This document shows positions 4,774 through 29,365 of a DNA stretch of 29,639 nucleotides, in pieces (positions within the stretch are counted from its first letter, which is position 1; each line of letters begins with the position of its first letter). The notes under the pieces are model-generated. The model was not told the origin of the DNA, ran no database searches, and worked only from the letters and a program-made list of their open reading frames with translations. The position numbers and the translations under genes were made by a program. The stretch is from the IMG/VR virus record IMGVR_UViG_3300030508_000019. One strand, given 5' to 3'. The stretch is from a virus.

Positions 4774-7158
4774 TCAAGAAATTTGATTTTCATTGCTGAC
4801 ATAAAGTCCATTATTATCCACAGAATTTGGAGCTTCTCTCTTATCGCTAACAAGAGAAGCACTAATCGCATTCATCTGTGTTTCAATACGATCTGTTTTT
4901 ACAATACTTCTCGCTGTTGTACATTCTGTAATTATATCTCCCCCACAGTTGTACTGAAGGTGCCCTTTATGAGAGATGTCAACATCACCAATAATATTTA
5001 ATCGCATGGCTTTTCCTTGTGCGTTAGGAAGTATAGTAATCTCAATCCCGCCGTCTAAGGCCGCGGTAATAGAACGCCCCTGATTGTCTTTTCCCAGTGC
5101 TGCAACTATTCCACCGGCTAAGTCTAAAAGCAACGATTGCCCAGAATCTGGATTTGAACCCAAACGCAATAAAGCATCTCGCACAGCATGCAAATCAAGA
5201 GATTGCCCATGAGCATCCATGTTGATTACTGGAGAACCACTCCATGCGTATGGGGGAAAAGGATTAAAGTCAGTTGTCCCCGAATTTGGCGGGGGTGTTC
5301 CTACTTGAGTAAGATCATGGAACCGATAAATATTATCCCCGGCTCCGTAGGTGGGACGACCCGGGCTCTTGGAGTCTATGCGACCATGGAAAGGTTCCCC
5401 ACAATCAGTACCTCCGCCATAAGGTCCTGTAGGAGATTCTGGATAAGCGGTTTTACCAGGACCATCGGAGTACCCATTAATCAAATGACGGCGTAAAGAT
5501 GCTGGATTCTTAGCCCCCAAGCGTAGTACAGCGCCTCCATCCGTAGCAGCGCGAAGAGATATATTCTCAGCACCCGTTTTCATAGTTAGGCTACCGGCGT
5601 CCCCTGGATTCAATTTGTGTTCGGTCCAGAACTGTAAAGTACGAGTCGCCGGAATATCTCCATTACTTCGAATTTGAGTCTGTACTGTGCGACGAGAATT
5701 CGGAAGAGATGCATCATCCGCCCCTAGACGAATTACAGATTGCCCTAAAATTTGAGCGTCCAAAGCATCTTCTTCATCTCTATTTTTACCGATAACAATT
5801 TTTGCACTACCTACAAGGTGCGCTTCTAAAGAACGGCCAGCACCGTGGGGGTGTTCATATCCACCTTGCCAATGCTTTAGAATATTTTCTTTAGGTAAAG
5901 TCGATCCGATTTCCAAGCTGATAAAACCCTCTTTCGTTACATCCAATCGCGTAGTGTTTTGGTCATAAGGGAATCGTATTGCTAGACAAGATGCTGCTAA
6001 ACGAGCTTCTTCATGATCCGCGGAATCCACAACTGGCAAATATCCTGATTCCACATCTGCTCCAAAACGCCCGCAGTAATTATAAGGGAATAGAACAGGC
6101 TTCAACACATGACCGTAAGTTGCCTGGTCAAAAATATTATATCCAACCAAGGTGCCTTGAGATTTTTCTACAATAAAAGCTCTACGTTGCGGGGTAGGTC
6201 CTTCATTAAGTGTTGGACCCACGGCTTTTGCTCTATCATCAAACGGATCATCCCAAGTCTGGGTAATCATGTAAGTTTCGTTATCGTAAGCTACTTGACC
6301 GCTGGGAGAGGTTACCTTAGTGCGTGCCCATGGGTCTGCGGTAGAACCTAATACGGTGTTAAACAAACTGGTCTGTAATACTTCATAAGGCATGGGATAA
6401 TCAAGAGAGAATTCCTGCGTCAATTCTGTGTGTTCAGCGAAAGGAATTACATCCTGCTTCCCGCTAACATATCGATCTGATGGTTGGGCTCCGGGTTGCA
6501 GGTAGGCTACATATTCCATTGTCCCATCTGGGAGAATCACAGGGATTAAATTTGATGCCAGAGGGCGATTCACTGACCCCTCAAAAGATACCCCAGCATC
6601 GGTATAGGAGACCCTACGGGCCGCTATCTGAGTCCATTGACGCTTATCCGCATCCGTTTTATCTCTGCTATAATCGGCTGCTTGTCTATCCCAGCCGGTA
6701 TCCACCTTTTCTGACGCCCCACCTGTATAAGCTGATGTTTTTTGCCCTGGGAACGCCTTTCGATATACACCTCTCAGACGGTCGCTATAACCTTGGATTC
6801 GGGTGCCGGATATTTGTCTAACCCCAACAGCATCTATCCCAAGATACCTATCCATATGAATCCAGCTAATTATCATCACCTGACGAAAACCTTTATCGTA
6901 AGCAAAATTACAAGCAATTCCCATAGAACCTTGTTCGGGCATTACCATATCGTATCCTTGTGATGAAGTGGACGCGGATGGAAATACTTGAACATTACCA
7001 TAAATAAGGCCATCTTTGACATCTTCTACTGTCATTACTTTACGCTCATAGTCAACAGTAAGAACTTCTACAATGAAAATATCGCGGTGGAGGCTTTCAT
7101 TTGTTCTTTCAAATGATGTAGGTGGATAAAAATCCGTATTTTTTCTTAGTAGCGGCAT
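4774..7158 (-). CDS. Virion baseplate or tail structural protein (794 aa)
   Basis: Large ORF inside a tightly packed structural operon. No catalytic motif recognised. Its position between the Ser/Thr-rich structural protein and the fiber suggests a baseplate component. Confidence 0.5.
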   Translation of the reverse strand: MPLLRKNTDFYPPTSFERTNESLHRDIFIVEVLTVDYERKVMTVEDVKDGLIYGNVQVFPSASTSSQGYDMVMPEQGSMGIACNFAYDKGFRQVMIISWIHMDRYLGIDAVGVRQISGTRIQGYSDRLRGVYRKAFPGQKTSAYTGGASEKVDTGWDRQAADYSRDKTDADKRQWTQIAARRVSYTDAGVSFEGSVNRPLASNLIPVILPDGTMEYVAYLQPGAQPSDRYVSGKQDVIPFAEHTELTQEFSLDYPMPYEVLQTSLFNTVLGSTADPWARTKVTSPSGQVAYDNETYMITQTWDDPFDDRAKAVGPTLNEGPTPQRRAFIVEKSQGTLVGYNIFDQATYGHVLKPVLFPYNYCGRFGADVESGYLPVVDSADHEEARLAASCLAIRFPYDQNTTRLDVTKEGFISLEIGSTLPKENILKHWQGGYEHPHGAGRSLEAHLVGSAKIVIGKNRDEEDALDAQILGQSVIRLGADDASLPNSRRTVQTQIRSNGDIPATRTLQFWTEHKLNPGDAGSLTMKTGAENISLRAATDGGAVLRLGAKNPASLRRHLINGYSDGPGKTAYPESPTGPYGGGTDCGEPFHGRIDSKSPGRPTYGAGDNIYRFHDLTQVGTPPPNSGTTDFNPFPPYAWSGSPVINMDAHGQSLDLHAVRDALLRLGSNPDSGQSLLLDLAGGIVAALGKDNQGRSITAALDGGIEITILPNAQGKAMRLNIIGDVDISHKGHLQYNCGGDIITECTTARSIVKTDRIETQMNAISASLVSDKREAPNSVDNNGLYVSNENQIS

Positions 7159-10264: not shown

Positions 10265-11431
10265 TTAAGAAACTCCGTTATAAAAATTAGACGCTGCCAC
10301 ACTAGTGGGGTTTAAAAGAAAAGATGTATTTGCCATATTATCTACGGATGTAGGAGCTACTTGTGGCAGGGTATTGTTAACATTAGCAGCCGCAACAGAT
10401 GGGGAGACTAAAGCTGGTTGACTATTCAATGTACTAAACCCAACACTAGAAATATTGGTTCCTGGTATATTTGATGGAGGTAAATTAGCCAACGATGATA
10501 CTGTAGTTGTACCATTTTGTGAAGTGGTAGCAGCCGAAGCCCATGCTCCATAAGTATGCCCTCGTTGTACATTATTGAGAATCAAATTTTGATACGGGGA
10601 TGTGGAGCGAAATCTCTCTTTCCATGCGATAAAACTGATTTGAAAATTCATCAGCCAAGGTGCTTCCGCCGATTGACTAATAGTAAGGGAATCAAACATA
10701 CCGTACCAAATAAAATTTCCTACCCACAATTCGACATCTTGGTGCATTTTGATTCTACGTCTGGTGAAATCCGCTGCGAGTGGGCCTTCAGCTGCTTGCT
10801 CTCCTTCAAACCAGTATCCGTTATTTTCAAACACCATGACCAAAGACTCTAAATTCCGATAGGAATCTGAAAATGGTTGAAACTGATCTGTAACTCCAAA
10901 GGCAAAATATTGGCCAGCGGTTTTACCGCTGAGATTTACTTGGAAAGAATCTTCTCCCCACACACCTATCTGCCAGCCAGCACGAGTCATAGCTTGCCCA
11001 TCTAAAGTTTGTCGATTGACTTGAACCTGAGACGGGTTAATGAGAAATCGAAAAATAGCTGCTGGTGCATTACCATTTTGTTGTCCGGTGGATGTAACTC
11101 CGCGATGTGGTATACGAACGAGTACATAATCCACGAAGGGTTTCATCGCCCCCGCTGTAAAAAAATCGCTATATTGCACAAGACTTGTTCGACCGGTGGC
11201 AGCGTAACCCTTATCTTGAGGGGATTTTTGTCCCCGTGCTGTATATGCTTTTTCAATCTGACTACTGGTATCGCTGGGGCTAATAGGACAGGGAATGATG
11301 CGTTTCTCTCCGCGAATAGGCAGTTGAACAGGGGATGTTTGCGCCGAATTTCCCGCAGTTATATTGAAATCACTAAAATCGGTACTTACATTTGATCCAA
11401 TATTGGAGTTGTTTGTATTTGTGCTCGCCAT
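10265..11431 (-). CDS. Virion structural protein (388 aa). Its core domain is paralogous to the central domain of the 484-aa lysin-domain protein
   Basis: TAATG start/stop overlap with the upstream gene. Shared motifs with ORF 11431..12885 are TRAGWQIGVWGE..SGKTAGQYFAFGVTDQF versus SRTGMHITLWGM..SGTTGVFMNQYGITDWF, and APWLMNFQISFIAWK versus SPFQWKFSFTFQV. Confidence 0.5.
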   Translation of the reverse strand: MASTNTNNSNIGSNVSTDFSDFNITAGNSAQTSPVQLPIRGEKRIIPCPISPSDTSSQIEKAYTARGQKSPQDKGYAATGRTSLVQYSDFFTAGAMKPFVDYVLVRIPHRGVTSTGQQNGNAPAAIFRFLINPSQVQVNRQTLDGQAMTRAGWQIGVWGEDSFQVNLSGKTAGQYFAFGVTDQFQPFSDSYRNLESLVMVFENNGYWFEGEQAAEGPLAADFTRRRIKMHQDVELWVGNFIWYGMFDSLTISQSAEAPWLMNFQISFIAWKERFRSTSPYQNLILNNVQRGHTYGAWASAATTSQNGTTTVSSLANLPPSNIPGTNISSVGFSTLNSQPALVSPSVAAANVNNTLPQVAPTSVDNMANTSFLLNPTSVAASNFYNGVS

Positions 11432-12885
11432 TAAATATCTCCCACGGGTCCTGAAGTTGTAGTTTGTACTGGACCTAAAGTTTGAGCTATGGTATTAGTT
11501 GCAGATGTAACCATAGTTGTGGTAAGACCTCCTACACTTGCGGATCCCCCACGTTCTGTCAATGTAACAATCGGCTGCGTTGTAGCTTGAGCCAGTAAAT
11601 TAATCTTAGGGAGGGGTTGAGTGACTTGAAAATTGGGATAATACAATGATGTATAGGTATTCTCAACTTGAAATGTAAAAGAAAATTTCCATTGAAACGG
11701 GCTGTCCGCATCTTGGGTCCAATTCAAAGACTTGAAATACCCCAAATAAACATTGTTTCTATACTTCATCCCCACATACCCGCGTGTCATAACATCATTG
11801 TTACGCCCATGTTGTTGAAATGAACTGGCTCCTACTTTGGTAGACCAACCATTCGGGGCTTGTTGTTCTTGTTCGCCCATAGTTCCGTTATAACTATCCG
11901 TGTGATACCACACATTACCGTTCATTTGGAATAACTTCAAAAATTCTACAAAACAATCCTGTGCCGCTACTCGATAGGCTTCTGGGTTTTGGTTAATAGC
12001 CCTTTCTGTATCGGGATTGTTACTAAAACCAGCTCCTACCAATTTAGCTATCTCATCATTAATTTGAGCGGTGCTGAACCAATCTGTAATACCGTATTGA
12101 TTCATAAACACTCCCGTAGTGCCGCTACCATTGATGAGATCCGGTTGCATACCCCAGAGGGTGATATGCATACCTGTACGCGATGGGGTGCGATTGTAAA
12201 CATGCTTACTTGCTATTTCAAATGTAGTCATTGATGTGTTGAGTTCAATGACGATAGGTTGCTGATTAGTGGGGTTATTCAGCGTTTGTGTGGGGTCATT
12301 ACGATCCAGGTATACTACAAAACTCACTGGTTGTACCATACCACGCGCATGAGGATTTCCAGTGACTAAATTTCTATCCAAATACCATGGCGTGGCGCTT
12401 AGACTTGGCTCCGGAACCTGTAAAGGCGGTGTAAGATCAGCCGCTGATAATCCGTAATTAGTACCGGTTGTGTTAGGCCCAATAATATTTCCTACTTGAG
12501 GCGCTACTGGAGTATTTAGTACATTAAACCGGGAAATTCCTAAAGTACTAGCAACTTGAGTTGCTGTATTTGGGTCTAGATGGTCCAAAAAAGCACCGCT
12601 TCCAAAGGTAGTCCAAGCACGGTAACCTTGGGCTTGGAAAATAGCGAAGGCTGCGTCAGCATTAGCTTGAGGATCTGTTATTACATTTTGGTCATACTGT
12701 GGCCAATAATGCCCATCTATTTGCCAAAGGCCTACTGACCCCCCAGGGTCGTCTGGATTATATTTATTGGGATTCCCACTACTCTCCGCTAAAGCAATAG
12801 CGGCCATGATGGGTATTTGATCTCCTGTAAAACCTGCATTAGCTGCAAAACCCTCTAATTGGTTGAAATTATATATTGTTGGCAT
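11431..12885 (-). CDS. Tail-associated peptidoglycan hydrolase (484 aa). N-terminal lytic-transglycosylase (lysozyme-like) domain, central structural domain, and the shared C-terminal module
   Basis: The N-terminus IALAESSGNPNKYNPDDPGGSVGLWQIDGHYW matches the catalytic Glu-Ser ... G-L-(M/W)-Q signature of family-1 lytic transglycosylases (SLT domain), as found in virion-associated lysins. It lies immediately downstream of the tape-measure-like gene. Confidence 0.7.
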   Translation of the reverse strand: MPTIYNFNQLEGFAANAGFTGDQIPIMAAIALAESSGNPNKYNPDDPGGSVGLWQIDGHYWPQYDQNVITDPQANADAAFAIFQAQGYRAWTTFGSGAFLDHLDPNTATQVASTLGISRFNVLNTPVAPQVGNIIGPNTTGTNYGLSAADLTPPLQVPEPSLSATPWYLDRNLVTGNPHARGMVQPVSFVVYLDRNDPTQTLNNPTNQQPIVIELNTSMTTFEIASKHVYNRTPSRTGMHITLWGMQPDLINGSGTTGVFMNQYGITDWFSTAQINDEIAKLVGAGFSNNPDTERAINQNPEAYRVAAQDCFVEFLKLFQMNGNVWYHTDSYNGTMGEQEQQAPNGWSTKVGASSFQQHGRNNDVMTRGYVGMKYRNNVYLGYFKSLNWTQDADSPFQWKFSFTFQVENTYTSLYYPNFQVTQPLPKINLLAQATTQPIVTLTERGGSASVGGLTTTMVTSATNTIAQTLGPVQTTTSGPVGDI

Positions 12886-12927
12886 ATTGATTATTGATTA
12901 TTGATTATTGATTATTGATTATTGATT
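12886..12927. repeat. Perfect heptanucleotide tandem repeat (ATTGATT)x6 (AATCAAT on the coding strand). It spans the TMP stop codon and ends 1 nt from the lysin start codon
   Basis: Six exact 7-bp units are read directly from the sequence. They resemble STRR-type heptamer arrays of heterocystous cyanobacteria. Confidence 0.9.
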
Positions 12928-15900
12928 CCTATTTGGAAGTCCCCCATTCAACCAAGGAGCGATTGCCGGGTGCATCTGTTTACCTGCTTGTTCATTAGAC
13001 ACGCTTGCGCTGTCATTATACCCAGCATCTTGGTTAATTTGAGCACTATAAAAATTATATACAGTATGGGACACCGGTGGACCCGACGGAGACCCCCCAG
13101 CCCCTTGTGGGATCTTGTGTCCCATAAACCAAACGCCGGTATTTAAATCTGGATCCAAATCATCATTGGATTGGTTGCCCGATAATTTATCTAATATTTC
13201 CTGCATTTGGACATCGTTTTTAAACATTCCTAGGCCTTCATATTTTTTTAAGTATTCCACCAAAGCTGTATCTTTATCGATGGTGGTTTCCAAAAGCTTT
13301 TCTCTGTTTTTAACGGCATCAGTTTGATTTTCCGAATTTAATCGCTTTAGTGTTGCCGCTGCTTCAGCCGACTCTTTCCGGGCTGCATCCATAGTTTCAG
13401 GTATTTTGGCGTCTTCAAAAGCTTTTGTAAGCCTATCTGAATCAGTTGGGCCTCCAAAGATCCAACTATTAGCCATATGTTCTACGAAAAATATCAACTT
13501 ATTAAGTAATGGGGCGATTAACTGTTCAAGAACATCAGAAGGAGATATTTCTCGTTTTTGAATACTTGCTTCGTCTTCTATAGACTTTGCTAAATCTGGA
13601 TCTTTTATATCCATGGGCTTTAGGTTTTTTAATACCATTGCTTGGGTGCTTGGTAATTCTTCTACCAAAAGCTGTAGTTCACTAAGTAATTTTTTTGGGT
13701 TTGTTTGCTGAGAATCTAAAGCATCATATAAATCATCTGTTGATTTTGTTCCGTTTTCTACCTCTGATATTAATTCTTTACTAGCTCCTTTAGTCCCCAA
13801 ATCTACAAGAAAAGGTCCTCTAGTTTTATTAGCTTGCCACAGTTCCCTAAATAAAGCTTTTCGAGCATCTTTTTGAGCTGCTACATCTTCTTTCCCTGCT
13901 CCAGGTAACCCTCCTGGCATTTCGTCAATATCTTTTATACGACCTGTCGCCATATCTTGAGAATTTTGTTGGATGAAAGCTACAGCATCTCCCTTTACGC
14001 CTATTGCATCAAGAATCTGCGTCAAAGCCATAGCTGCGCTAGGATTTATTGAACCGGTTAATATACTACTTAAGTCAGTACCAGAATACTTTAAGGCGCT
14101 TAGGACATTGTCTTGGGCGGTAGCTGCTGTTTGATATTGACTTCGTTGAAAAAGAGTAGCGCTAGCCGCACGACCTTCCATTGTACTCCCAGGTGCGTAT
14201 GCTGCGCTTTGTCGAAGAGATAAAGTAAGATTGTTTAAAGCATCCTCAAGATTCTTTCTAGTTCTTTCATCTTGAACATTTGATACGGCTACTCTTTGAG
14301 CTTCAATAAGACTTACAGCTTTTGTTGTATCCCCTTTGGCTATTAAGTCTTGTATAGTAGATTTATCTATTTTATCTGCTCCTACCGACTGTCCGTTAGC
14401 ATCTACTAACTTTCCACTATCTACTTCGTCATTATACATATCAACATAGGTTCCAGCTTCCTGTTGAAACCGTTTATTCCCTTGAATAATTTGTGCTGGG
14501 TTTTTTAAAGCTTCCTGCCACATAGTTTGAGCTAAATTTCCAGAATTTCTTTTGTCACCGCCTTGAGATAAAAATTCCATCATATCTTTTAAAGATTCTG
14601 AACTAATAGCTCCATAGCGACTAAGATTACGCATCATTTCTGTAGTAAACTCTAAAGAACGATTCATACGATCAAAATGCATACTTACTTCATCAATGAT
14701 TTTTAAATATTTGGTAGTACTTATACCTGCCGCTTGTGTATCTTTATTTAGTTGAGTAAAAAACTTTTCAGAACTACGCATAGTCTGCCCATATTGATCT
14801 AACAACTTAAGTAATTCCGTTACTCCTTCTGTATCGGTCAAGCCCGCAACTCTAGCTGCCCCAAAAACTACTCTCTGTGCTTCCCCCAGGCTACCACGCA
14901 TATACCCTCTATTTCCTCCCGGTCCTTGATTGGCTGTATCAGGGGCGTTATCTACCAAGGAACCCCCTATGTTAGTTCCACCCGCCGCTAAACCTCCAGC
15001 TAAATCTAAATTCCTTTCAAAAGTTATTCCCAGCCCCAAGCCCTGCCCCATGAGCCTTGGTGTTAAAGCATTTCTAGCTGTTTCAAAAGCTGTACCAGCT
15101 AACTCCCCTGCTCTAGCGCCAGAGAATAAACCAGCTTTTCCTAACTTCCCCTCCATTTCTTTATTTTGCTTTATGTAAGTTCCCATTAAAGCACTGAGTC
15201 CTACAATAACGCCAGCGAGAACTTCAAGAGGTATCATGATTTCCGGAGCAATTCCTGTAAGTGCTGTTATCGCCCCCTCAATACCTTCGGAAAGAGTGCT
15301 CATGGCCCCTACTACACCGGAACCTCCTTCCATTGCGGCGGTATATCCGATCCCTGTTGCACCTTCAGATTCGAATCCTTCAGCCATTGTTCCGGCTTTG
15401 AAATCAGCCGCTTTTTTACCTTTAAACCCCATTTTCTTCATTAAAAATTGCATACCTCTTTCGGTGGGTTTACCTTTTTCATCAAACTGACGAGGTTCTC
15501 CCGCTTCCTGCATTTTTTTCATTTCTTTAAAAGCGGCGTCTCGTTTATTTGTCATATGCTCGCGTGTCGCAGCAAGACGATGTTTTTTAGTTTCTTCAGT
15601 TTTATCCTTCAATTCTTGAATTTGTTCTAACCTACGGTCTATTTTATAATTAATCCCTTTCCCGATACCGACGGTTCCCAACATACCCATGATGCCTTTA
15701 AAATGCGCCAATGAAGGACGAAGTTGACTAAGTGCTTTAGCTAATGCTAAAACATTTTTTGTAGAATCGCTGACAATCTCACCAACCTTAGCTAGCTCTT
15801 CTTCATTTAGTTTAATCGCCTTACCTATTTCGCTATATACTTTTTTAACTTTATCCAATTCTTTGTTGAGCAACTCAGTCTCAGTTCTATTTGCTTTAGA

Positions 15901-16275
15901 GTCTTTTAAAATTTTGTTATATATTCCCATCAATTTTTCTAACTCTTTCTTTGCCTTATCTGTATCCCTCATTTGATCTTTACCTATTTTTTGAGCTTTT
16001 TTTGACCAGTTAGCTACCTCTTTGTAACTTTCTTGAAGATTGTCACTGTATTTCACAAAATCCTTCATAGTACCCACACCATCTGTAAGATGATCGACTA
16101 CCTTATCAGTCATATCCGCTACTGTGGTAAAAGTTTTTTCAAGTGTCTCTCCTAAAGCTGCCATAGTGGTAGTGAGCCCGGATAAAACATTTAATGCAGC
16201 GGACAAATCTGGATTAACTGGTCCTTGTGGGTTGTTATTACCAGGTCCTTGCGGGTTGTTAGGATCGTCGGGCAT
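12919..16275 (-). CDS. Tape-measure-like protein (1118 aa)
   Basis: Very long, K/E-rich helical protein with Gly-rich hydrophobic segments (GIAPEIMIPLEVLAGVIVGLSALMGTY; GLGLGITFERNLDLAGGLAAGG) typical of tail length tape-measure proteins. It is preceded by a small chaperone-like ORF with a TAATG overlap and followed by a lysin-domain tail protein. Confidence 0.55.
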   Translation of the reverse strand: MPDDPNNPQGPGNNNPQGPVNPDLSAALNVLSGLTTTMAALGETLEKTFTTVADMTDKVVDHLTDGVGTMKDFVKYSDNLQESYKEVANWSKKAQKIGKDQMRDTDKAKKELEKLMGIYNKILKDSKANRTETELLNKELDKVKKVYSEIGKAIKLNEEELAKVGEIVSDSTKNVLALAKALSQLRPSLAHFKGIMGMLGTVGIGKGINYKIDRRLEQIQELKDKTEETKKHRLAATREHMTNKRDAAFKEMKKMQEAGEPRQFDEKGKPTERGMQFLMKKMGFKGKKAADFKAGTMAEGFESEGATGIGYTAAMEGGSGVVGAMSTLSEGIEGAITALTGIAPEIMIPLEVLAGVIVGLSALMGTYIKQNKEMEGKLGKAGLFSGARAGELAGTAFETARNALTPRLMGQGLGLGITFERNLDLAGGLAAGGTNIGGSLVDNAPDTANQGPGGNRGYMRGSLGEAQRVVFGAARVAGLTDTEGVTELLKLLDQYGQTMRSSEKFFTQLNKDTQAAGISTTKYLKIIDEVSMHFDRMNRSLEFTTEMMRNLSRYGAISSESLKDMMEFLSQGGDKRNSGNLAQTMWQEALKNPAQIIQGNKRFQQEAGTYVDMYNDEVDSGKLVDANGQSVGADKIDKSTIQDLIAKGDTTKAVSLIEAQRVAVSNVQDERTRKNLEDALNNLTLSLRQSAAYAPGSTMEGRAASATLFQRSQYQTAATAQDNVLSALKYSGTDLSSILTGSINPSAAMALTQILDAIGVKGDAVAFIQQNSQDMATGRIKDIDEMPGGLPGAGKEDVAAQKDARKALFRELWQANKTRGPFLVDLGTKGASKELISEVENGTKSTDDLYDALDSQQTNPKKLLSELQLLVEELPSTQAMVLKNLKPMDIKDPDLAKSIEDEASIQKREISPSDVLEQLIAPLLNKLIFFVEHMANSWIFGGPTDSDRLTKAFEDAKIPETMDAARKESAEAAATLKRLNSENQTDAVKNREKLLETTIDKDTALVEYLKKYEGLGMFKNDVQMQEILDKLSGNQSNDDLDPDLNTGVWFMGHKIPQGAGGSPSGPPVSHTVYNFYSAQINQDAGYNDSASVSNEQAGKQMHPAIAPWLNGGLPNRNQ

Positions 16276-19370: not shown

Positions 19371-22277
19371 TTGTCTACTAACAAATCGCAATTCGCTAAT
19401 ATCCAATTAGGCGTTAAATTACTTTTTCAACCCCATCAACTCGTTGAATGTCGTGTTCGTCTCACCTCTGGTCCTTGGCGTGGATTTTATTTCACCGATC
19501 ATGGTCGCTTAGCGGATGTTGTAAATCAACTGGATCAAGACCCTCGTGTTACTTCAATTTATTATGTCATCAATCCAGTAAAAGCGAATCTATTAGTAGA
19601 AAGAGCGAAATGTACTTGTAAAATATGCGTTAAAGGTAAAGGTGGGTTATTAGTAGACAACCCCACAGACATTCAAGTTGAATCCATTTTAACTGGCCCC
19701 TCACAACATCTCACCGGAAATGAAGATGTAGATTCTCTTAATTGGTTATTTATAGATGTTGATACTGTACGTGCCAAGGGAATGGAGCATGAAAGCTCTA
19801 CCAAAAAAGAAAAAGCAGCAGCATGTGGTGTAGCGAAAAGTGTACTCGCTTTCTTGGATGAAAAACAATGGCCCAATCCTATATTTGGAGATTCCGGCAA
19901 CGGTTTCCATATTCTAGCAAAAATAAAAATGCTAAATATGATATCCAACACTCACATGTTGCTGGATTGCTTGAAAGTGTTATCAAAAAAATTCAATTGT
20001 GAGGCAGCCCATATCGATGACGCTGTATTCAATCCTGCTCGTTTAACTAGAGCCTATGGTAGTACTACGCGCAAGGGTACCAATACCCCTGAACGACTTT
20101 TCCGCTATAACAAACTTGTAGAACCCAGTAGTCCGATTGAAGAAGTCCCCCTGGAAAAAATCATTTCCTTAGGTAGCGAAATTCCAATATCCAGCCGTCG
20201 AACTAATGATATTCCTGAATTGGACCCTAAATTTGACCCTGCGGATTGGATCAAGTGGTACGAAGATCAAGGTGCTTTCTCTATTGAAGAAGAGCGTGAT
20301 ACCAGTGGATTACACATCATGGTTACCGATACCTGTTTAAATGCTGGGCATCGGCATACAGGGTCTACTTACAGCGGGTTTGTAGTAGGGGACAGCTTTG
20401 GTTATCACTGCTTCTCCGATGATTGTCCTGATGTCACTATCGGAACAATTTTTAAGATTTTACGAGAGACCTTGGATGAAAATGGCAAACAAAAATACAA
20501 GCCTTACCTGGGTCCTATTTTTAAAGATGATGGATTAGAAGAATTTATTTTGGAGTTCGCTGATGTTTTAGAAAAAACAGAAACATCTATCGAACAAGCT
20601 CAAGAAATTCAAATGGATAAAGTCATGGAAGATAGTCCATCCGATAAAGTGGAGGAAAAATCTACTACTCGTGATGCTTTGGATATAGAGTGTAACCAAC
20701 AAGCAACAGATCTTCTAAGCATTATATTACACCATCCCGCAGAAGTATGGGAAGATGGCTTTATTTTTTATGTTAAACGAGTAAAAGATAAATTAGGATT
20801 TAACAATAAAACACCAAAAAAAGTGGGGTTAGGTGAGGTGGGTGTGCCTACATTAGGAATGCCTATAGGTGACACCATGTCTATGCTATTAAAATTTATA
20901 GATGTTCATCAAAAACTTCCAGATAAAGAAGCTTTAACATACTTTATTCAAGTAAATGATGATCCTACGGTTAAAAATAACAAATTTAAGGATGAGGTTA
21001 TACATTTTGTTAATAACTTACCAGACCGTCCGATAAGTACTTTTGACCATACAGCACAACAATTCCTTAAAAAACTAGATTTACGCCATGAATATAAAGC
21101 ATGGCGTGCAGCTTACAATCATTTCTTATTTACCGAAGGTGATATACAAGGGGCGAGAAAAGCTTTAAGAAAACATTGGAATATAAGTACAGCACAGGAT
21201 ACAACCTTCGAACAAGGTTCTTGGCAGGAAAACACTGAATCTATCTTAGCTGATTTTGAACGCGATCTTAGAGGAGATGATGATAGCCGGAAAATGATGC
21301 TAGGTTTCCCAATTATTGATAATTCTGGAGCAAATATTGGTTTAGATGGAGATCGTTACATATGTCTATGTGGACCATCAAATAACCGAAAAACCACAGC
21401 TGTTCTTTCCATAGCACTTAATTTAGCTATACAAGGACACCATGGATTATTTTTTGCTGGTGAACACCAGAAACCTAAGCTTCTTAAAAAATTAACTCTT
21501 CAACTTTCTCATTTCTTTAGAGATGATGAAGAAATAGGTCATATCCCAGGATTAAATAATTGGGAAGGATTGAAACGAACCGCCACAGAAGAAGATTTTG
21601 GTCATGTTAAAACCTTACTAACTAAGCTCCGTCTAGGTAAAATTGTACCTGGGCATTTAGAACCTCAAAATATTGATGCTCTCTCTCGGGGAGATGACGA
21701 TAAGGTGGGGGCGTTACTTGCTTATGCAGAAGCTACATGGTCTAAGTATCAATGGACTTACATCGTAATTGACCCTATTGATACAGTTATGCCCGTAGGT
21801 GGAGATAGTAATCGTGATGGACAAAGTATCTGGGATCGTAAATCAGAAGTTATTGAAAGATTATTACGTTTTAGTCGTAATGCTTTTGGTGGAAGAGGTT
21901 GCGCAGTATTTATTACCGCCCAATATAAGTCAGATGCGGCTAGAGAAATTCAAGGGTTACAGGAAAAGAATGTAGGACCGGATAGGTTTGATGATGCTAT
22001 CGCATCTGTGTTACGTCGAGATAGCAACATTCAAACCCTCACTACTATCATTCAAAAATGTGATTTATGTATAGGTATTGCCACATTAACAAAAAATGGA
22101 GATGTGGGTTTGATGGTGAGAGGTAGAGATCGTGAGGGTGGTAGAGATTGGGAATTAGAGTTTGAAGTAGATAAAGATTCTAATTATATGATGCAATCGA
22201 AACGTGAACGATCTTATAAAGTAGCAGCAGCTGAATCTTCAGCTCCTGTACATTTGGAACAGGTGGATCAATTATGA
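19371..22277 (+). CDS. Primase-polymerase (AEP/prim-pol domain) fused to a RecA/DnaB-like (AAA_25-type) helicase domain (968 aa). TTG start
   Basis: The N-terminal half carries the AEP catalytic motifs (LFIDVDT acidic DxD motif; SGNGFHIL sGxGxH motif) and a Cys/His cluster (GYHCFSDDCPD). The C-terminal half has a P-loop-like CLCGPSNNRKTTAV and a Walker-B-like WTYIVIDPIDTV. GAGGAG SD lies 5 nt upstream of the TTG. No in-frame ATG until about codon 138. Confidence 0.7.
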   Translation: MSTNKSQFANIQLGVKLLFQPHQLVECRVRLTSGPWRGFYFTDHGRLADVVNQLDQDPRVTSIYYVINPVKANLLVERAKCTCKICVKGKGGLLVDNPTDIQVESILTGPSQHLTGNEDVDSLNWLFIDVDTVRAKGMEHESSTKKEKAAACGVAKSVLAFLDEKQWPNPIFGDSGNGFHILAKIKMLNMISNTHMLLDCLKVLSKKFNCEAAHIDDAVFNPARLTRAYGSTTRKGTNTPERLFRYNKLVEPSSPIEEVPLEKIISLGSEIPISSRRTNDIPELDPKFDPADWIKWYEDQGAFSIEEERDTSGLHIMVTDTCLNAGHRHTGSTYSGFVVGDSFGYHCFSDDCPDVTIGTIFKILRETLDENGKQKYKPYLGPIFKDDGLEEFILEFADVLEKTETSIEQAQEIQMDKVMEDSPSDKVEEKSTTRDALDIECNQQATDLLSIILHHPAEVWEDGFIFYVKRVKDKLGFNNKTPKKVGLGEVGVPTLGMPIGDTMSMLLKFIDVHQKLPDKEALTYFIQVNDDPTVKNNKFKDEVIHFVNNLPDRPISTFDHTAQQFLKKLDLRHEYKAWRAAYNHFLFTEGDIQGARKALRKHWNISTAQDTTFEQGSWQENTESILADFERDLRGDDDSRKMMLGFPIIDNSGANIGLDGDRYICLCGPSNNRKTTAVLSIALNLAIQGHHGLFFAGEHQKPKLLKKLTLQLSHFFRDDEEIGHIPGLNNWEGLKRTATEEDFGHVKTLLTKLRLGKIVPGHLEPQNIDALSRGDDDKVGALLAYAEATWSKYQWTYIVIDPIDTVMPVGGDSNRDGQSIWDRKSEVIERLLRFSRNAFGGRGCAVFITAQYKSDAAREIQGLQEKNVGPDRFDDAIASVLRRDSNIQTLTTIIQKCDLCIGIATLTKNGDVGLMVRGRDREGGRDWELEFEVDKDSNYMMQSKRERSYKVAAAESSAPVHLEQVDQL

Positions 22278-22840
22278 GTGAAATTTTGCCCGGATGGAGT
22301 TGGTTTAAATTCGATATAGATGGTTGGTTATCTAGTAAAGATGTCCAGTGTATGAATATGAATGATAGGGGAATGTATACCCATCTTCTAATTATTCAAG
22401 CACGCGATGGAAAACTTGATGCTGATCTTCGTCATCTTGCTAAACAGGCAAATGGTGTTGATTATAGATCGGTTAAAAGTTGGATGAAAAAATGGGGATA
22501 TCTCTTCCCTATTATTGGGCTAGACCCTGACTTAATGGTTGCGCAGGCGCAGCGTCCGTGCAGCGTCCACGCTGCGTCCCCGCAACCTACATGCAGCGTC
22601 TGCGTTGCGCCCGCGTTACCTCTACGCTGCTTCCCCGCTGCGTCCTGGATGCGTGGACGCAGCGCCCGCGTAAATCCCAAGCTATGGAATTTGCAAGTAA
22701 ATACGGGAAAATTTGCATCTCTGCCGATCATAGAGGAGAAGAGAGGAGAAGGGATACTAGAAGGAGAATTAGAAGGAGATAATACTGCCGTAGTATTAAC
22801 CTGTAAAAATAAATCTTTATCTAAAGGTGTAGGTAAATAA
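22274..22840 (+). CDS. Replication-associated protein with a DUF1376-like N-terminal domain. The coding sequence embeds an 11-bp iteron-like array and a polypurine tract
   Basis: ATGA overlap with the primase-helicase stop (translational coupling). The N-terminus FKFDIDGWLSSKDVQCMNMNDRGMYTHLLII fits the D-(Y/W)-L-x-(D/S)-T/S ... LS ... E/D-x-G-x-Y-x-x-LL pattern of phage DUF1376 replication proteins, recalled from memory. Downstream, the ORF reads through a GC-rich repeat that is open in all six frames, so its true C-terminus is uncertain. Confidence 0.45.
   Translation: MSEILPGWSWFKFDIDGWLSSKDVQCMNMNDRGMYTHLLIIQARDGKLDADLRHLAKQANGVDYRSVKSWMKKWGYLFPIIGLDPDLMVAQAQRPCSVHAASPQPTCSVCVAPALPLRCFPAASWMRGRSARVNPKLWNLQVNTGKFASLPIIEEKRGEGILEGELEGDNTAVVLTCKNKSLSKGVGK
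22539..22670. repeat. Twelve tandem 11-bp GC-rich units (consensus cWGCGTCCnCG). Iteron-like array, candidate replication origin
   Basis: Units read directly from the sequence are ttgcgcaggcg, cagcgtccgtg, cagcgtccacg, ctgcgtccccg, caacctacatg, cagcgtctgcg, ttgcgcccgcg, ttacctctacg, ctgcttccccg, ctgcgtcctgg, atgcgtggacg and cagcgcccgcg. The island is GC-rich within AT-rich flanks. It contains a 10-bp inverted repeat gcgtccacgc (22563-22572) / gcgtggacgc (22651-22660). Confidence 0.7.
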
Positions 22841-23566
22841 ATGTCATTAACAAATCCATACTGGTCTAAAATGACTAAAGAAGAATGGGATAATCTTGAA
22901 CCAAAACACCAAGAGGAAATGAGACATAATCATGATCGTGAATTAATGTCAATGTCAAAAAAGCGAAATAAGGTCTCAAATGCTCCTATAAAAATTAATC
23001 CAAATATTGCCGCCCAGAAAAGTGTTTCAGATAATAGTGATAATAGTACTAACCATCCTGTAACTATAGAATTACCAAAAACTAAATTGAAAGGATTACG
23101 AGACTGGGATGAACAAGTTGGAGAATTTTCCGCTGAAAGACTTCGTGATTGTATTATCTATCAATTAGATGTAAAGAAAAATTCTTGGTATATAAGAACT
23201 TTAACTACAGGGTTTGTTTTTAAGAACGCGGCCAAGCTTGATGCTGACACACCACCAGATTACAGATATGAAGTAGACCCACTATTTGGATCATTCACAT
23301 CTGGTGATCAAACCCATCCAAAAATACTTCGTATGCCGAAGAATAATGAAGAGCGTATGGAAATAAGAAATAGACACGGAGTAAATAACGGAACTATTCC
23401 CTTTCTCGTCAAATTGAACTGTGCTACATGTAAGGGGACTGGTACTTACGAAATATCTTCTTACCCAAACGCTAAAAGTAATATTATTAGACTTCATGAA
23501 AAAGTTATTTGTGATTGTGTGTATGGAAATTCCACAGACGATGGAAAATCTTCACCTTCCCCATAA
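22841..23566 (+). CDS. Hypothetical protein (241 aa) with a C-terminal CxxCxGxG-type zinc-finger motif
   Basis: ATG immediately follows the upstream stop. The motifs are NCATCKGTGTYE and a downstream CDC. Confidence 0.5.
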   Translation: MSLTNPYWSKMTKEEWDNLEPKHQEEMRHNHDRELMSMSKKRNKVSNAPIKINPNIAAQKSVSDNSDNSTNHPVTIELPKTKLKGLRDWDEQVGEFSAERLRDCIIYQLDVKKNSWYIRTLTTGFVFKNAAKLDADTPPDYRYEVDPLFGSFTSGDQTHPKILRMPKNNEERMEIRNRHGVNNGTIPFLVKLNCATCKGTGTYEISSYPNAKSNIIRLHEKVICDCVYGNSTDDGKSSPSP

Positions 23567-23667
23567 AAATTTTCTGTATCACTAGTGAAATTTTTTCCCA
23601 ATCCCCGAAGTATATATGACCGCTTCAGTATTAACACATAGAACATTCCTAAGAGAGAAAGTATTTC

Positions 23668-26657: not shown

Positions 26658-27152
26658 ATGAACGTAATTGAGTACTGCACAGAGGAAGTGCGTAGACAAG
26701 GGCATGATATTACTCTGCTTGACGGCATTCAGAGAGTTGGTTGGATGTTAGACGGTTGGACTTACGCTCTTGTTAACGTTTCCGATCGCATGCCTGATCT
26801 AGGTGATGCAATCAGTTTGGGTATGCTTGTGGAAGTTAAGAAGAATGTTAACGGACTGCGTAACTGTGACATCCGAGTAGGTGATTGTATATGCCCAAGA
26901 CCAGATGAACTTCGTCGGCTGCTTAACAGGCTGTTCGATCTCCGTGATAGTATGACACCAATCGAGTTTTACAAAGAGTTTGAGATGATTCATCCGTTTG
27001 TTGACGGTAATGGGCGAACGGGTAAGATTCTGTTCAACTGGTTAAATAGGACGTTATTTGATCCAATCTTTCCGCCGAACGACTTGTTTGGTTATGTTGT
27101 AGCTAAACTGCCAGACGGACAGCGCGTTGCTGCCGAATTACCGACCGCATAA
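26658..27152 (+). CDS. Fic/Doc-family (Fido) domain protein (164 aa)
   Basis: IHPFVDGNGRTGKILFNWL matches the Fic active-site motif HPFx(D/E)GNGRxxR, with the last Arg replaced by Lys. A strong SD (GGAGTGAGGA) precedes the ATG. Confidence 0.7.
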   Translation: MNVIEYCTEEVRRQGHDITLLDGIQRVGWMLDGWTYALVNVSDRMPDLGDAISLGMLVEVKKNVNGLRNCDIRVGDCICPRPDELRRLLNRLFDLRDSMTPIEFYKEFEMIHPFVDGNGRTGKILFNWLNRTLFDPIFPPNDLFGYVVAKLPDGQRVAAELPTA

Positions 27153-27930: not shown

Positions 27931-28590
27931 ATGGCAGTAGCGGGAGCAGCAAAGGCGAAGAAGGTGTGTGAGGTGTTTGACACACCATATATCATTACCC
28001 TAGTTCAACAAGCAAAAGCTGGAGATGAAGCGGCTTTTTCAACTCTATATCACAAATTTTATCGGTATTTGAGTAATACTATAAGGCGCGTTCTTCCCGG
28101 GCAACAACCGGATACAGCGGACTGGCTCGCCAACAAAGCCATGACCCAAGCCTGGTTAAATCTCAAAAATTTCAATGAGAAATCCACATTTCAAACCTGG
28201 ATTACACGCATTGCCATCAACGAATGGAAGATGTATATTCGTGAAGAAACATCCGTAGGTCGTCAACGAGACAAAGAACTTTCTCTAAATGAAATTTTGG
28301 ATGAAAATCCTAGCGACGGTAAATTTGGACAACGGGACATTAATTTAGCTGGTATCGCTGATCGACAAATGCTTGATTTGTCGCTTAAAGGTATCCCTAG
28401 TGTTTACCGTGATATTGTGTATTTAAAATTGTGGATGGGATTTTCCGTGAAGGAAATTGAAAATATCTTGGGAGTGAAAAGACCCAAAAAAGTCGGAATG
28501 AATATCGTTAAGGGTCGTAAGATGTTGCTGGAACAGGTAAAAAAGAATTCTACAAATAGTCCTAGACAAACAAGGATGACCGGGGTATAA
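27931..28590 (+). CDS. ECF-type (group IV) sigma-70 family RNA polymerase sigma factor (219 aa)
   Basis: Region 2: AKAGDEAAFSTLYHKFYRYLSNTIRRVL and TFQTWITRIAINEW. Region 4 helix-turn-helix: YRDIVYLKLWMGFSVKEIENILGVKRPKKVGMNIVKGRKML. Confidence 0.85.
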   Translation: MAVAGAAKAKKVCEVFDTPYIITLVQQAKAGDEAAFSTLYHKFYRYLSNTIRRVLPGQQPDTADWLANKAMTQAWLNLKNFNEKSTFQTWITRIAINEWKMYIREETSVGRQRDKELSLNEILDENPSDGKFGQRDINLAGIADRQMLDLSLKGIPSVYRDIVYLKLWMGFSVKEIENILGVKRPKKVGMNIVKGRKMLLEQVKKNSTNSPRQTRMTGV

Positions 28591-28717: not shown

Positions 28718-29365
28718 ATGAGAATAAGTAAGGTAACAATTTTTGCGTTAATTTTGAGTTTGCTTTCGTTTGTTTCTGCGGCCTCTGCCGATCCCATCAC
28801 TCTGACGAATCTATTCGGCACCATAAGTATTAGCGATATCGGCGTAGGTGGAATGGGCACGATTGGTTCAACTACCATTACATCTCACGGTTCGGAGCTA
28901 ACAAACTTTGAAGGAATAACCGCTCCGCATGGGCATTCGCTTGGTTATGTAGGGTTTTCTACCGGCGTGCTAGAAAGCGGAAGTGTGCTAAACGGTGGGG
29001 TATTTTCCAGTACCGGGTCCACTTTCGATGTTATCGGTAAGGGTAAATTTGGACAACCTAAGGGAAATATTTTTATCGGCAGCTTTGTAGGTCCTATTGA
29101 CTGGACATTAATCTCCCAAAATAAGCAGGAGCGAACCTACACTTTAACAGGTGAGTTGTCTGGAACACTCTGGAATGGGCGTTTTACAACTGGGTACACT
29201 ACCCAAACCATCAATATACTCAACAAGAATCAACTGAACGGCGGTGTGGGGCACATTGGGCTTGGTTCTACGAGTATTTCCGCCCCTGAACCAGGGACTT
29301 TAGGTCTGTTGGGAACAGGACTCGTAGGGATCGCTGGAATGTTTCGCCGGAAGTATTTTTCTTAA
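28718..29365 (+). CDS. Secreted PEP-CTERM domain protein (215 aa), an exosortase substrate
   Basis: N-terminal signal peptide (MRISKVTIFALILSLLSFVSAASA). The C-terminus has a PEP motif plus a TM helix plus a basic tail (SAPEPGTLGLLGTGLVGIAGMFRRKYFS), the PEP-CTERM signature. Confidence 0.8.
   Translation: MRISKVTIFALILSLLSFVSAASADPITLTNLFGTISISDIGVGGMGTIGSTTITSHGSELTNFEGITAPHGHSLGYVGFSTGVLESGSVLNGGVFSSTGSTFDVIGKGKFGQPKGNIFIGSFVGPIDWTLISQNKQERTYTLTGELSGTLWNGRFTTGYTTQTINILNKNQLNGGVGHIGLGSTSISAPEPGTLGLLGTGLVGIAGMFRRKYFS

Follow-up and report, generated by a model that had tools for sequence, protein, structure and literature searches.

The 11-bp repeat array and its host gene

The window analyzed here is the whole 29,639-nt stretch of the virus record IMGVR_UViG_3300030508_000019 (GC content 41.5%). 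It carries an array of short direct repeats, a conserved box and a polypurine tract that follow one another within a plus-strand open reading frame (ORF) of 188 amino acids (22274..22840), which encodes a DUF1376-related protein and candidate initiator with a predicted helix-turn-helix (HTH)/helical domain at about residues 13-78 (22310-22507). The start of this gene overlaps the stop codon of the upstream ORF in the sequence ATGA, and the next gene abuts it. The upstream ORF (19371..22277, plus strand) encodes 968 amino acids, with an N-terminal part that resembles primase-polymerases (prim-pol) of the archaeo-eukaryotic primase (AEP) type and a C-terminal part that resembles DnaB-type helicases. 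Residues 506-721 match the DnaB-like helicase phrog_19 weakly (E = 1.5e-7), residues 23-356 show a weak tblastn match (27% identity) to a gene of a Bacteroides phage that carries the annotation DNA polymerase, and the motifs FIDVD and SGNGFH (AEP-like) and GPSNNRKT were recognized by eye; no match was found in Pfam, NCBIfam or PDB. On this evidence the label of primase-helicase, given to the protein in a preliminary description of this DNA, is plausible rather than established.

A search of 5.8 billion proteins for homologues of the 188-aa protein returned sequences of 183-190 residues that are 43-97% identical to it and come from metagenomic sources throughout. They belong to a lineage of large, uncultured phages from peat, bog and soil metagenomes, with contigs of up to 178 kb. 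The gene order is kept in those homologues that lie on long contigs: two leftward genes, a helicase gene of about 1000 codons, the DUF1376-related gene, a gene for 210-250 amino acids and ribonucleotide reductase. The window protein scores 16.7 bits against Pfam DUF1376 (PF07120), below the gathering threshold of 30.1, and 14 of 15 homologues match the same family at E<=0.1, likewise below threshold (best E 3.6e-6); six match HTH_36. However, a profile search of the family against 1.84 billion representatives retrieved 1048 relatives at E<=1e-3, and among those sampled P0041, P0044, P0140 and P0158 pass the Pfam threshold with 36.1, 35.5, 50.6 and 39.0 bits, respectively. The protein is thus DUF1376-related by profile homology to accepted members, its direct Pfam hit being below threshold. 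A model built with AlphaFold2 (AF2) from a shallow alignment is helical over residues 13-78, with predicted local distance difference test (pLDDT) values of 60-82 there and below 50 from residue 80. A fold search with this model gave nothing below E=2, the HTH-type matches being non-significant.

The array starts at codon 89, past the predicted HTH domain, and consists of 12 contiguous 11-bp units (22539..22670, 132 bp; consensus CTGCGTCCnCG) that are translated in frame as residues 89-133 and are read in all three codon phases. In 11-bp steps the units are ttgcgcaggcg, cagcgtccgtg, cagcgtccacg, ctgcgtccccg, caacctacatg, cagcgtctgcg, ttgcgcccgcg, ttacctctacg, ctgcttccccg, ctgcgtcctgg, atgcgtggacg and cagcgcccgcg. 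The GC content of the array is 0.705, compared with 0.415 in the window and 0.368 in the rest of the gene. Autocorrelation revealed identities of 0.587, 0.564 and 0.636 at lags of 11, 22 and 33, respectively, as against 0.10-0.36 at other lags. None of 20,000 mononucleotide shuffles matched the lag-11 identity at any lag from 4 to 40, nor did any of 5,000 synonymous-codon resamplings that preserved the peptide (mean 0.37-0.40). Tandem Repeats Finder (TRF) reports period 11/22 with a weak score of 50-57, because the units have diverged. The motif CWGCGTCCNCG, allowing one mismatch, occurs nine times in the window (0.94 expected), and eight of the matches are inside the array.

These results bear out the 12 tandem GC-rich units of the preliminary description, as well as its two variant units 33 bp apart (at 22583 and 22616). 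The perfect 10-bp inverted repeat that it placed inside the array is present too (22636-22645 and 22655-22664; CGCTGCGTCC and GGACGCAGCG); it represents an inverted unit and is lineage-specific, as the alignment of homologues shows no conservation of it. Of six frames said to be open across the array, four are, the other two, on the minus strand, holding one and two stops. Beyond the near confinement of the motif to the array within the window, neither the DNA nor the protein of array or gene has a match among isolate phages, and the IMG/VR and GTDB genomes gave no match to array or gene; two GTDB hits to the conserved box are chance hits in unrelated genes.

The idea that the C-terminal half of the ORF might be a read-through artefact is contradicted by its conservation: more than 20 homologues share the protein over the entire ORF. 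In the repeat-encoded part, C96, H99, C107, C110, A122, A123, W125, M126 and R132 are invariant across 15 homologues, and the codons of the conserved Cys and His residues vary synonymously (TGC/TGT, CAC/CAT), which leads us to reject the artefact. The motif NPKLWNL..GK is conserved as well among the homologues.

Nucleotide-level constraint on the coding sequence

In a codon alignment of eight distinct genes, the N-terminal domain (codons 1-88) has an amino-acid identity of 0.63, a codon identity of 0.38 where the amino acid is the same, and a GC content at third codon positions (GC3) of 0.30-0.93. The corresponding values are 0.57, 0.65 and 0.52-0.70 in the array (codons 89-132), 0.73, 0.82 (up to 0.89 in sliding windows) and 0.32-0.46 directly after it (codons 133-160), and 0.36, 0.43 and 0.07-0.68 in the tail (codons 161-188). 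The island of suppressed synonymous change covers codons 85-162 (22526..22759), which we take as the extent of the cis-element, and differs from the N-terminal domain in a per-column Mann-Whitney test (p = 5e-10). Moreover, only 22538-22779 of the region 21500-23600 aligns at about 80% nucleotide identity between the window and relatives whose loci have a GC content of 52-64%, compared with 41.5% in the window. The AT-rich or purine codons CTA, AAT, TTG, GTA, AGA and GGA are retained even in genomes of 62-64% GC.

Conservation within the array was assessed in nine genomes, all of which carry exactly 12 units with zero indels. It follows the position in the unit (R2 0.34, adjusted 0.28, for period 11; about 0 for the other periods from 5 to 19) and hardly the position in the codon (R2 0.03; mean identities 0.72, 0.75 and 0.65), whereas the N-terminal domain shows the usual pattern over the three codon positions (0.72, 0.79 and 0.41). 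Unit positions 4 (C) and 11 (G) are invariant in all 12 units of the nine genomes and in every codon phase, and the core G|YWRC at each unit border forms a degenerate palindrome framed by the invariant G and C. One clade (L002 and L024) keeps the period of 11 and the invariant G and C with the unit consensus CaGCAAG(c/t)gTG, the variable half having changed from CGTCC to CAAGT in many units. Since 11 is not a multiple of 3, selection on the protein yields no 11-nt period, and the period implies that selection acts on the array as DNA (or RNA), its translation being tolerated and in part put to use. From these alignments, a nucleotide-level function of the island on top of its coding sequence appears very probable. 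The earlier suggestion of such a function for the array and the following tract is borne out by the synonymous-codon identity, the alignment at about 80% identity and the 11-base phasing.

Several other uses of the island were considered. No alternative frame is open throughout the island in all homologues, as an overlapping gene would need, and the strongest constraint (gene positions 397-480) lies outside any alternative frame. The search for a sigma-70 promoter or a terminator in the island gave nothing beyond shuffle expectation. A promoter for the phage's own sigma factor is disfavoured, because the box occurs once in the 29.6 kb.

A conserved box and a polypurine tract follow the array

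Directly after the array lies a 60-nt conserved box (22671..22730; AAATCCCAAGCTATGGAATTTGCAAGTAAATACGGGAAAATT, encoding NPKLWNLQVNTGKF), which occurs once in the 29.6-kb window. Its synonymous codon identity is 0.82-0.89, with a per-column median of 1.00 (p 7e-11), and in the GC-rich relatives its AT content is 0.52-0.62 compared with 0.36-0.49 for the locus. The box is followed by the polypurine tract (22731..22781, purines on the plus, coding strand), which encodes EEKRGEGILEGELEG and contains 10- and 12-bp repeats (22732-22781, TRF), in agreement with the purine tract with short repeats described earlier. The tract is 80% purine in the window and 63-88% in relatives, and its AGA and GGA codons are among those kept at 62-64% GC.

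A candidate replication origin

We propose that the region from about 22526 to 22781 is a cis-acting DNA element that shares its bases with the code for a DUF1376-related protein with an HTH, and that it is most likely, at about even confidence, a replication origin. An initiator, either the protein's own N-terminal HTH domain or the adjacent prim-pol/helicase, would load onto the 12 in-phase 11-bp units, each with an invariant G-N3-C core. If B-DNA is held to a repeat of 11.0 bp, untwisting of roughly half a turn would be stored in the 132 bp, and this strain could be released by melting in the adjoining, relatively AT-rich box, where the helicase/primase encoded just upstream would enter. 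The purine tract may stabilize an RNA-DNA hybrid or provide strand asymmetry, and the repeat region would be doubly used, being also translated as a linker with conserved Cys and His residues. Protein binding, melting and origin function are our inference; directly observed are the repeat, its conservation and phasing, the low synonymous variation and the surrounding genes. An origin is further favoured by the uniqueness of the element in the window and by the translational coupling of its gene to the helicase gene.

Primase-helicases serve as initiators in phage P4 (the alpha protein) and in Staphylococcus aureus pathogenicity islands (SaPI; Rep), and short iterons are found at the P4 and SaPI origins. 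The parallel to ori-lambda drawn in the preliminary description also stands: in both cases direct repeats come after an N-terminal DNA-binding domain (predicted here), and the origin or candidate origin lies between the N- and C-terminal parts of the (putative) initiator gene in DNA that is translated; the AT-rich stretch that adjoins the repeats in lambda may have its counterpart in the relatively AT-rich box (PMC3349717). However, ori-lambda in gene O has four spaced 18-bp iterons and a 38-bp AT-rich stretch (PMC3349717), whereas the 12 units of the phage studied here are 11 bp long, adjoin one another directly and share an invariant G-N3-C core. The gene belongs to the lambda O family in one case and is DUF1376-related, with a predicted initiator role, in the other; its partner in lambda is a P-type loader encoded downstream, while the prim-pol/helicase here is encoded upstream.

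A DUF1376 protein also holds the replication-initiator slot of the Rac prophage, in which ydaU (DUF1376) is located between ydaT and ydaV (an ATP-binding protein), where lambda O sits. In Escherichia coli K-12 Rac (L021, 2972-3078), ydaU contains four copies of a sequence of about 14 nt (AAGCAGATGTTCAA) at three spacings of 33 bp, plus an inverted copy in mid-gene. By analogy, the gene position points to a possible origin role for YdaU, and the mid-gene repeats suggest that an internal origin may occur in the DUF1376 family too. The 33-bp spacing recalls the window gene; unlike it, YdaU has 285 residues, and the repeats are 14 nt long, AT-rich and non-contiguous. Profile comparison of the window protein with YdaU found no similarity beyond the domain (hhalign E 0.21). 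The minimal replicon of plasmid pRN1 is reported to need 166 bp just downstream of orf904, a prim-pol/helicase gene (PMC4234260), so that there, too, a cis element adjoins a fused primase/helicase gene. Unlike pRN1-type origins, the element described here lies within a separate downstream gene and is dual-coded, and no sequence similarity was found between them.

Were the proposal correct, a large uncultured phage lineage that has no relative among isolated phages would gain an origin and an initiator open to experiment, and part of the DUF1376 family a role. Origins within an initiator gene are a known kind; what sets this candidate apart is the contiguous 12-unit lattice in all codon phases, its place in a DUF1376-related gene, its occurrence in a lineage of large uncultured phages and the non-phage copies described below. 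The array would also exemplify dual coding, in which a protein-binding lattice with a period of 11 bases overlies an ORF in all three codon phases, so that the 11- and 3-periodic signals are separable.

Several observations weigh against an origin. The cumulative GC skew, a check suggested at the outset, has its minimum at about 19.0-19.5 kb, some 3.2 kb upstream of the array, at the switch between divergently oriented genes; as skew at this place also tracks the direction of transcription, it is weak evidence on the array. No DnaA box was found near the array, the sole one in the window being at 4814, and the AT content of the box in the window (0.62) is barely higher than the background (0.59). 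Furthermore, the box and the tract encode the motifs N.KL..L..E.GK and EERREE, which are family-wide, and their conservation is therefore partly at the protein level; by the codon alignment, their codon-level identity exceeds that protein-level conservation. Finally, two distant relatives, P0022 and P0023 (28-30% identical; DUF1376 scores of 25.4 and 27.8 bits), keep the gene without the array-encoded segment. The earlier proposal of an iteron origin in a DUF1376-like gene thus holds as to nucleotide-level function, gene context and lambda-like layout, and fails as to the artefact idea and the skew.

The absence of the array from these two relatives is in part the result that had been named as evidence against an origin if the gene was kept; the box they do retain at the DNA level. 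In the DNA of their loci (L022 and L023), CCAAGCTATGGAATTTG is identical, and the sequence reads AA(A/C)(C/G)CCAAGCTATGGAATTTGGCA.TAGAAGTGGGAAAA, in register with the window; L022 also has AGAGGAGAAGAGAGGAGAAGG, the same as in the purine tract of the window. Because distant relatives keep the box without the array, the box is the older of the two. On this comparison of sequences, what is widely shared is a core of box and purine tract, to which this clade has added the 12-unit array. Neither P0022 nor P0023 showed similarity to the 241-aa protein encoded downstream, and the idea of a fusion with it was dropped.

In members of the wider DUF1376 family (P0043, P0044, P0051, P0052 and P0062), the linker before the N.KL..L motif is variable in length and rich in Cys, Ser, Ala, Arg and Gln; that of P0051 repeats ASLRN at a distance of 22 residues (66 nt, or 6 x 11). 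The composition of these linkers suggests that other GC-rich arrays may exist in the family.

A further point against an origin is that 12 contiguous 11-bp units resemble parC of plasmid R1 more than classical iterons of 17-22 bp (PMC2241845). The array might accordingly be a protein-binding platform with another task, acting for example as a centromere in partition, as an operator in autoregulation or as a signal for packaging, in which a small dimeric DNA-binding protein would coat the units in the manner of ParR on parC. R1 parC offers a precedent, with tandem 11-bp direct repeats that bind about one ParR dimer each and double as an operator (PMC2241845). The G-N3-C core, being the degenerate palindrome GYWRC, would suit a dimer, and the gene product, having an HTH, could regulate itself. 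However, R1 parC is non-coding and has two sets of five units around a promoter beside parM and parR, none of which is seen here, where the array is inside an ORF. No ParR, ParM, ParA, ParB or terminase-like family was detected in the scanned ORFs of the window or in the Pfam tables of the related loci, although small ribbon-helix-helix proteins could escape such a scan. The array is also located in the replication module, and a platform leaves unexplained the single-copy conserved box that outlives the array in distant relatives. We regard this alternative as unlikely.

Copies of the island in non-phage contigs

The region of the island recurs at 98-100% identity in contigs other than those of the phage, where it begins at 22402 or 22491-22495 on the left and stops at 22869 or 22886 on the right. 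In six contigs from several bog metagenomes (L011, L012, L016, L017, L018 and L020), a fragment of 380-485 bp is embedded in unrelated, apparently bacterial sequence of 50-62% GC. The fragment comprises the array, the box, the purine tract, the 3' end of the gene and 29-46 nt from the start of the following one, without the N-terminal domain. All copies are 100% identical over 22495-22786, the first single-nucleotide polymorphism (SNP) being at 22787. The left flank is either A or B and the right flank either X or Y, and each of the four possible pairings is seen, so that with the phage arms the junction types are phage-left/core/phage-right (the window), B/core/phage-right, B/core/X, B/core/Y, A/core/X and A/core/Y. 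Identical copies in the phage and between other flanks imply that the island is a repeat present in the phage as well as in two or more other genomic contexts.

Flank A has a pair of IS3-type transposases at its end, which abuts the fragment in L011 and L012. Flank B is the 3' part of a gene for a 360-aa HTH_36 protein, cut just past the HTH and oriented head to head with the truncated DUF1376-like gene, which is cut at the equivalent point (L016 2148-2903 and L017 3249-3983, both on the minus strand; full-length form P0038). Apart from the transposase and this one HTH_36 protein, the flank ORFs of the non-phage contigs have no Pfam or PHROG assignment; they have no homologues in the phage loci, and the comparison of the window-protein profile with the B-flank protein was not significant. 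P0039 shows yet another replacement of the N-terminal part. P0075 (87 aa, from the group of truncated copies) has an additional 31-codon deletion from C107 to L137, by which about two thirds of the array and the start of the box are gone.

In five contigs (L027-L031), which represent five samples and were built by three assembly pipelines, flank B meets the right arm of the phage at 22491, with 99.9% identity to 29639. This joint may exist in nature, between phage and host or in a recombinant, or the assembler may have passed through the 290-bp exact repeat; some of the mixed contigs may likewise have arisen in assembly and correspond to no real molecule. About 92 contigs start immediately to the left of the SNP at 22787, as is usual for assembly graphs where a repeat is shared. 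Contig breaks at about 22677-22691 were considered as physical genome ends; assembly-graph breaks k-1 left of the first SNP fit them better. L019 (1-2620) is a fold-back contig: 21927-22899 in inverted orientation (92%) meets, at about L019 956-995, a direct copy of 21888-23521 (97%). As the two arms are different variants, the contig is probably chimeric.

Plasmid-borne ori-lambda iterons block lambda (PMC3349717). That the non-phage copies are functional origin copies, for example decoys that titrate the phage initiator, or else a satellite origin or a resident element that uses the phage replication proteins and recombines with the phage, seems distinctly unlikely. The fragment may be what is left of a prophage, a partner in recombination, the origin of a satellite or a decoy for the phage origin, and the copies could bear on origin capture, decoy defence and phage-host recombination.

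The same copies raise the alternative that the island is a recombination or integration module, that is, an attachment (att)-like site or a hot spot of homologous exchange with host-resident copies, conserved as the region of crossover. The segment from 22491 to 22869/22886 is indeed joined to differing flanks in differing contigs, and all copies are identical over 22495-22786. Three of four junction types expected of an att site were seen, though these could be paths of the assembler through the 290-bp exact repeat, at which the approximately 92 contigs break. Neither in the scanned ORFs of the window nor within 10 kb in the related loci did an integrase or recombinase family turn up, and an 11-bp phased constraint conserved across relatives of different GC content would be unexpected for an att core. 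Such a module is, in our judgement, highly unlikely.

Transcript-level and protein-level explanations

The constraint might instead act on the mRNA or another transcript, as a structured or protein-bound RNA, a primer or R-loop transcript, or an element of translational control. The plus strand of the window folds somewhat better than its shuffles (z -2.95), and purine-rich RNA forms stable hybrids with DNA. Conserved RNA structure was, however, not supported: the covariation term of RNAalifold is +0.1 with many broken pairs, Rfam gave no match over the island at gathering score or at E<=1, no match to tRNA or tmRNA was obtained, and the hairpins of the window, the 10-bp inverted repeat included, are not kept in homologues. 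A programmed -1 frameshift at G_GGA_AAA was rejected, since the heptamer is lost in L001 (GGGAGAA) and L003 (TCAGGAAAA). Moreover, an R-loop primer would belong to the function of an origin and be no true rival to it. A constraint on RNA is accordingly rated very improbable.

Selection on the protein alone, for an 11-residue peptide repeat or a Cys/His metal-binding linker, agrees with the invariance of C96, H99, C107 and C110 despite synonymous variation and with an ORF that is always open, but it is hardly credible, as it cannot give an 11-nt period, equal conservation at the three codon positions or invariant bases in every phase, and the array is less conserved than the N-terminal domain in amino acids and yet far more so in synonymous codons.

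Other features of the window and of related loci

Around the conserved gene order, the related loci differ in several respects. A gene of the T5orf172/MUG113 type is inserted ahead of the reductase gene in L003-L006 (9209-9580), and in L010 (3580-6215) a class I pair of Ribonuc_red_sm and Ribonuc_red_lgC replaces the single reductase gene of 636-742 aa. The right arm of the window encodes a Fic-domain protein (26658-27152), an extracytoplasmic function (ECF)-like sigma factor with a Sigma70_r2 domain (27931-28590) and a protein with a PEP-CTERM signal (28718-29365). A sigma factor is encoded in relatives as well, and L001 has a fusion of histidine kinase and response regulator. On the other side of the helicase gene, a perfect tandem repeat of TATTGAT (6.1 copies, 12885-12927) fills the short space that separates the leftward ORFs 12919-16275 and 11431-12885 and lies immediately upstream of the start codon of the latter.

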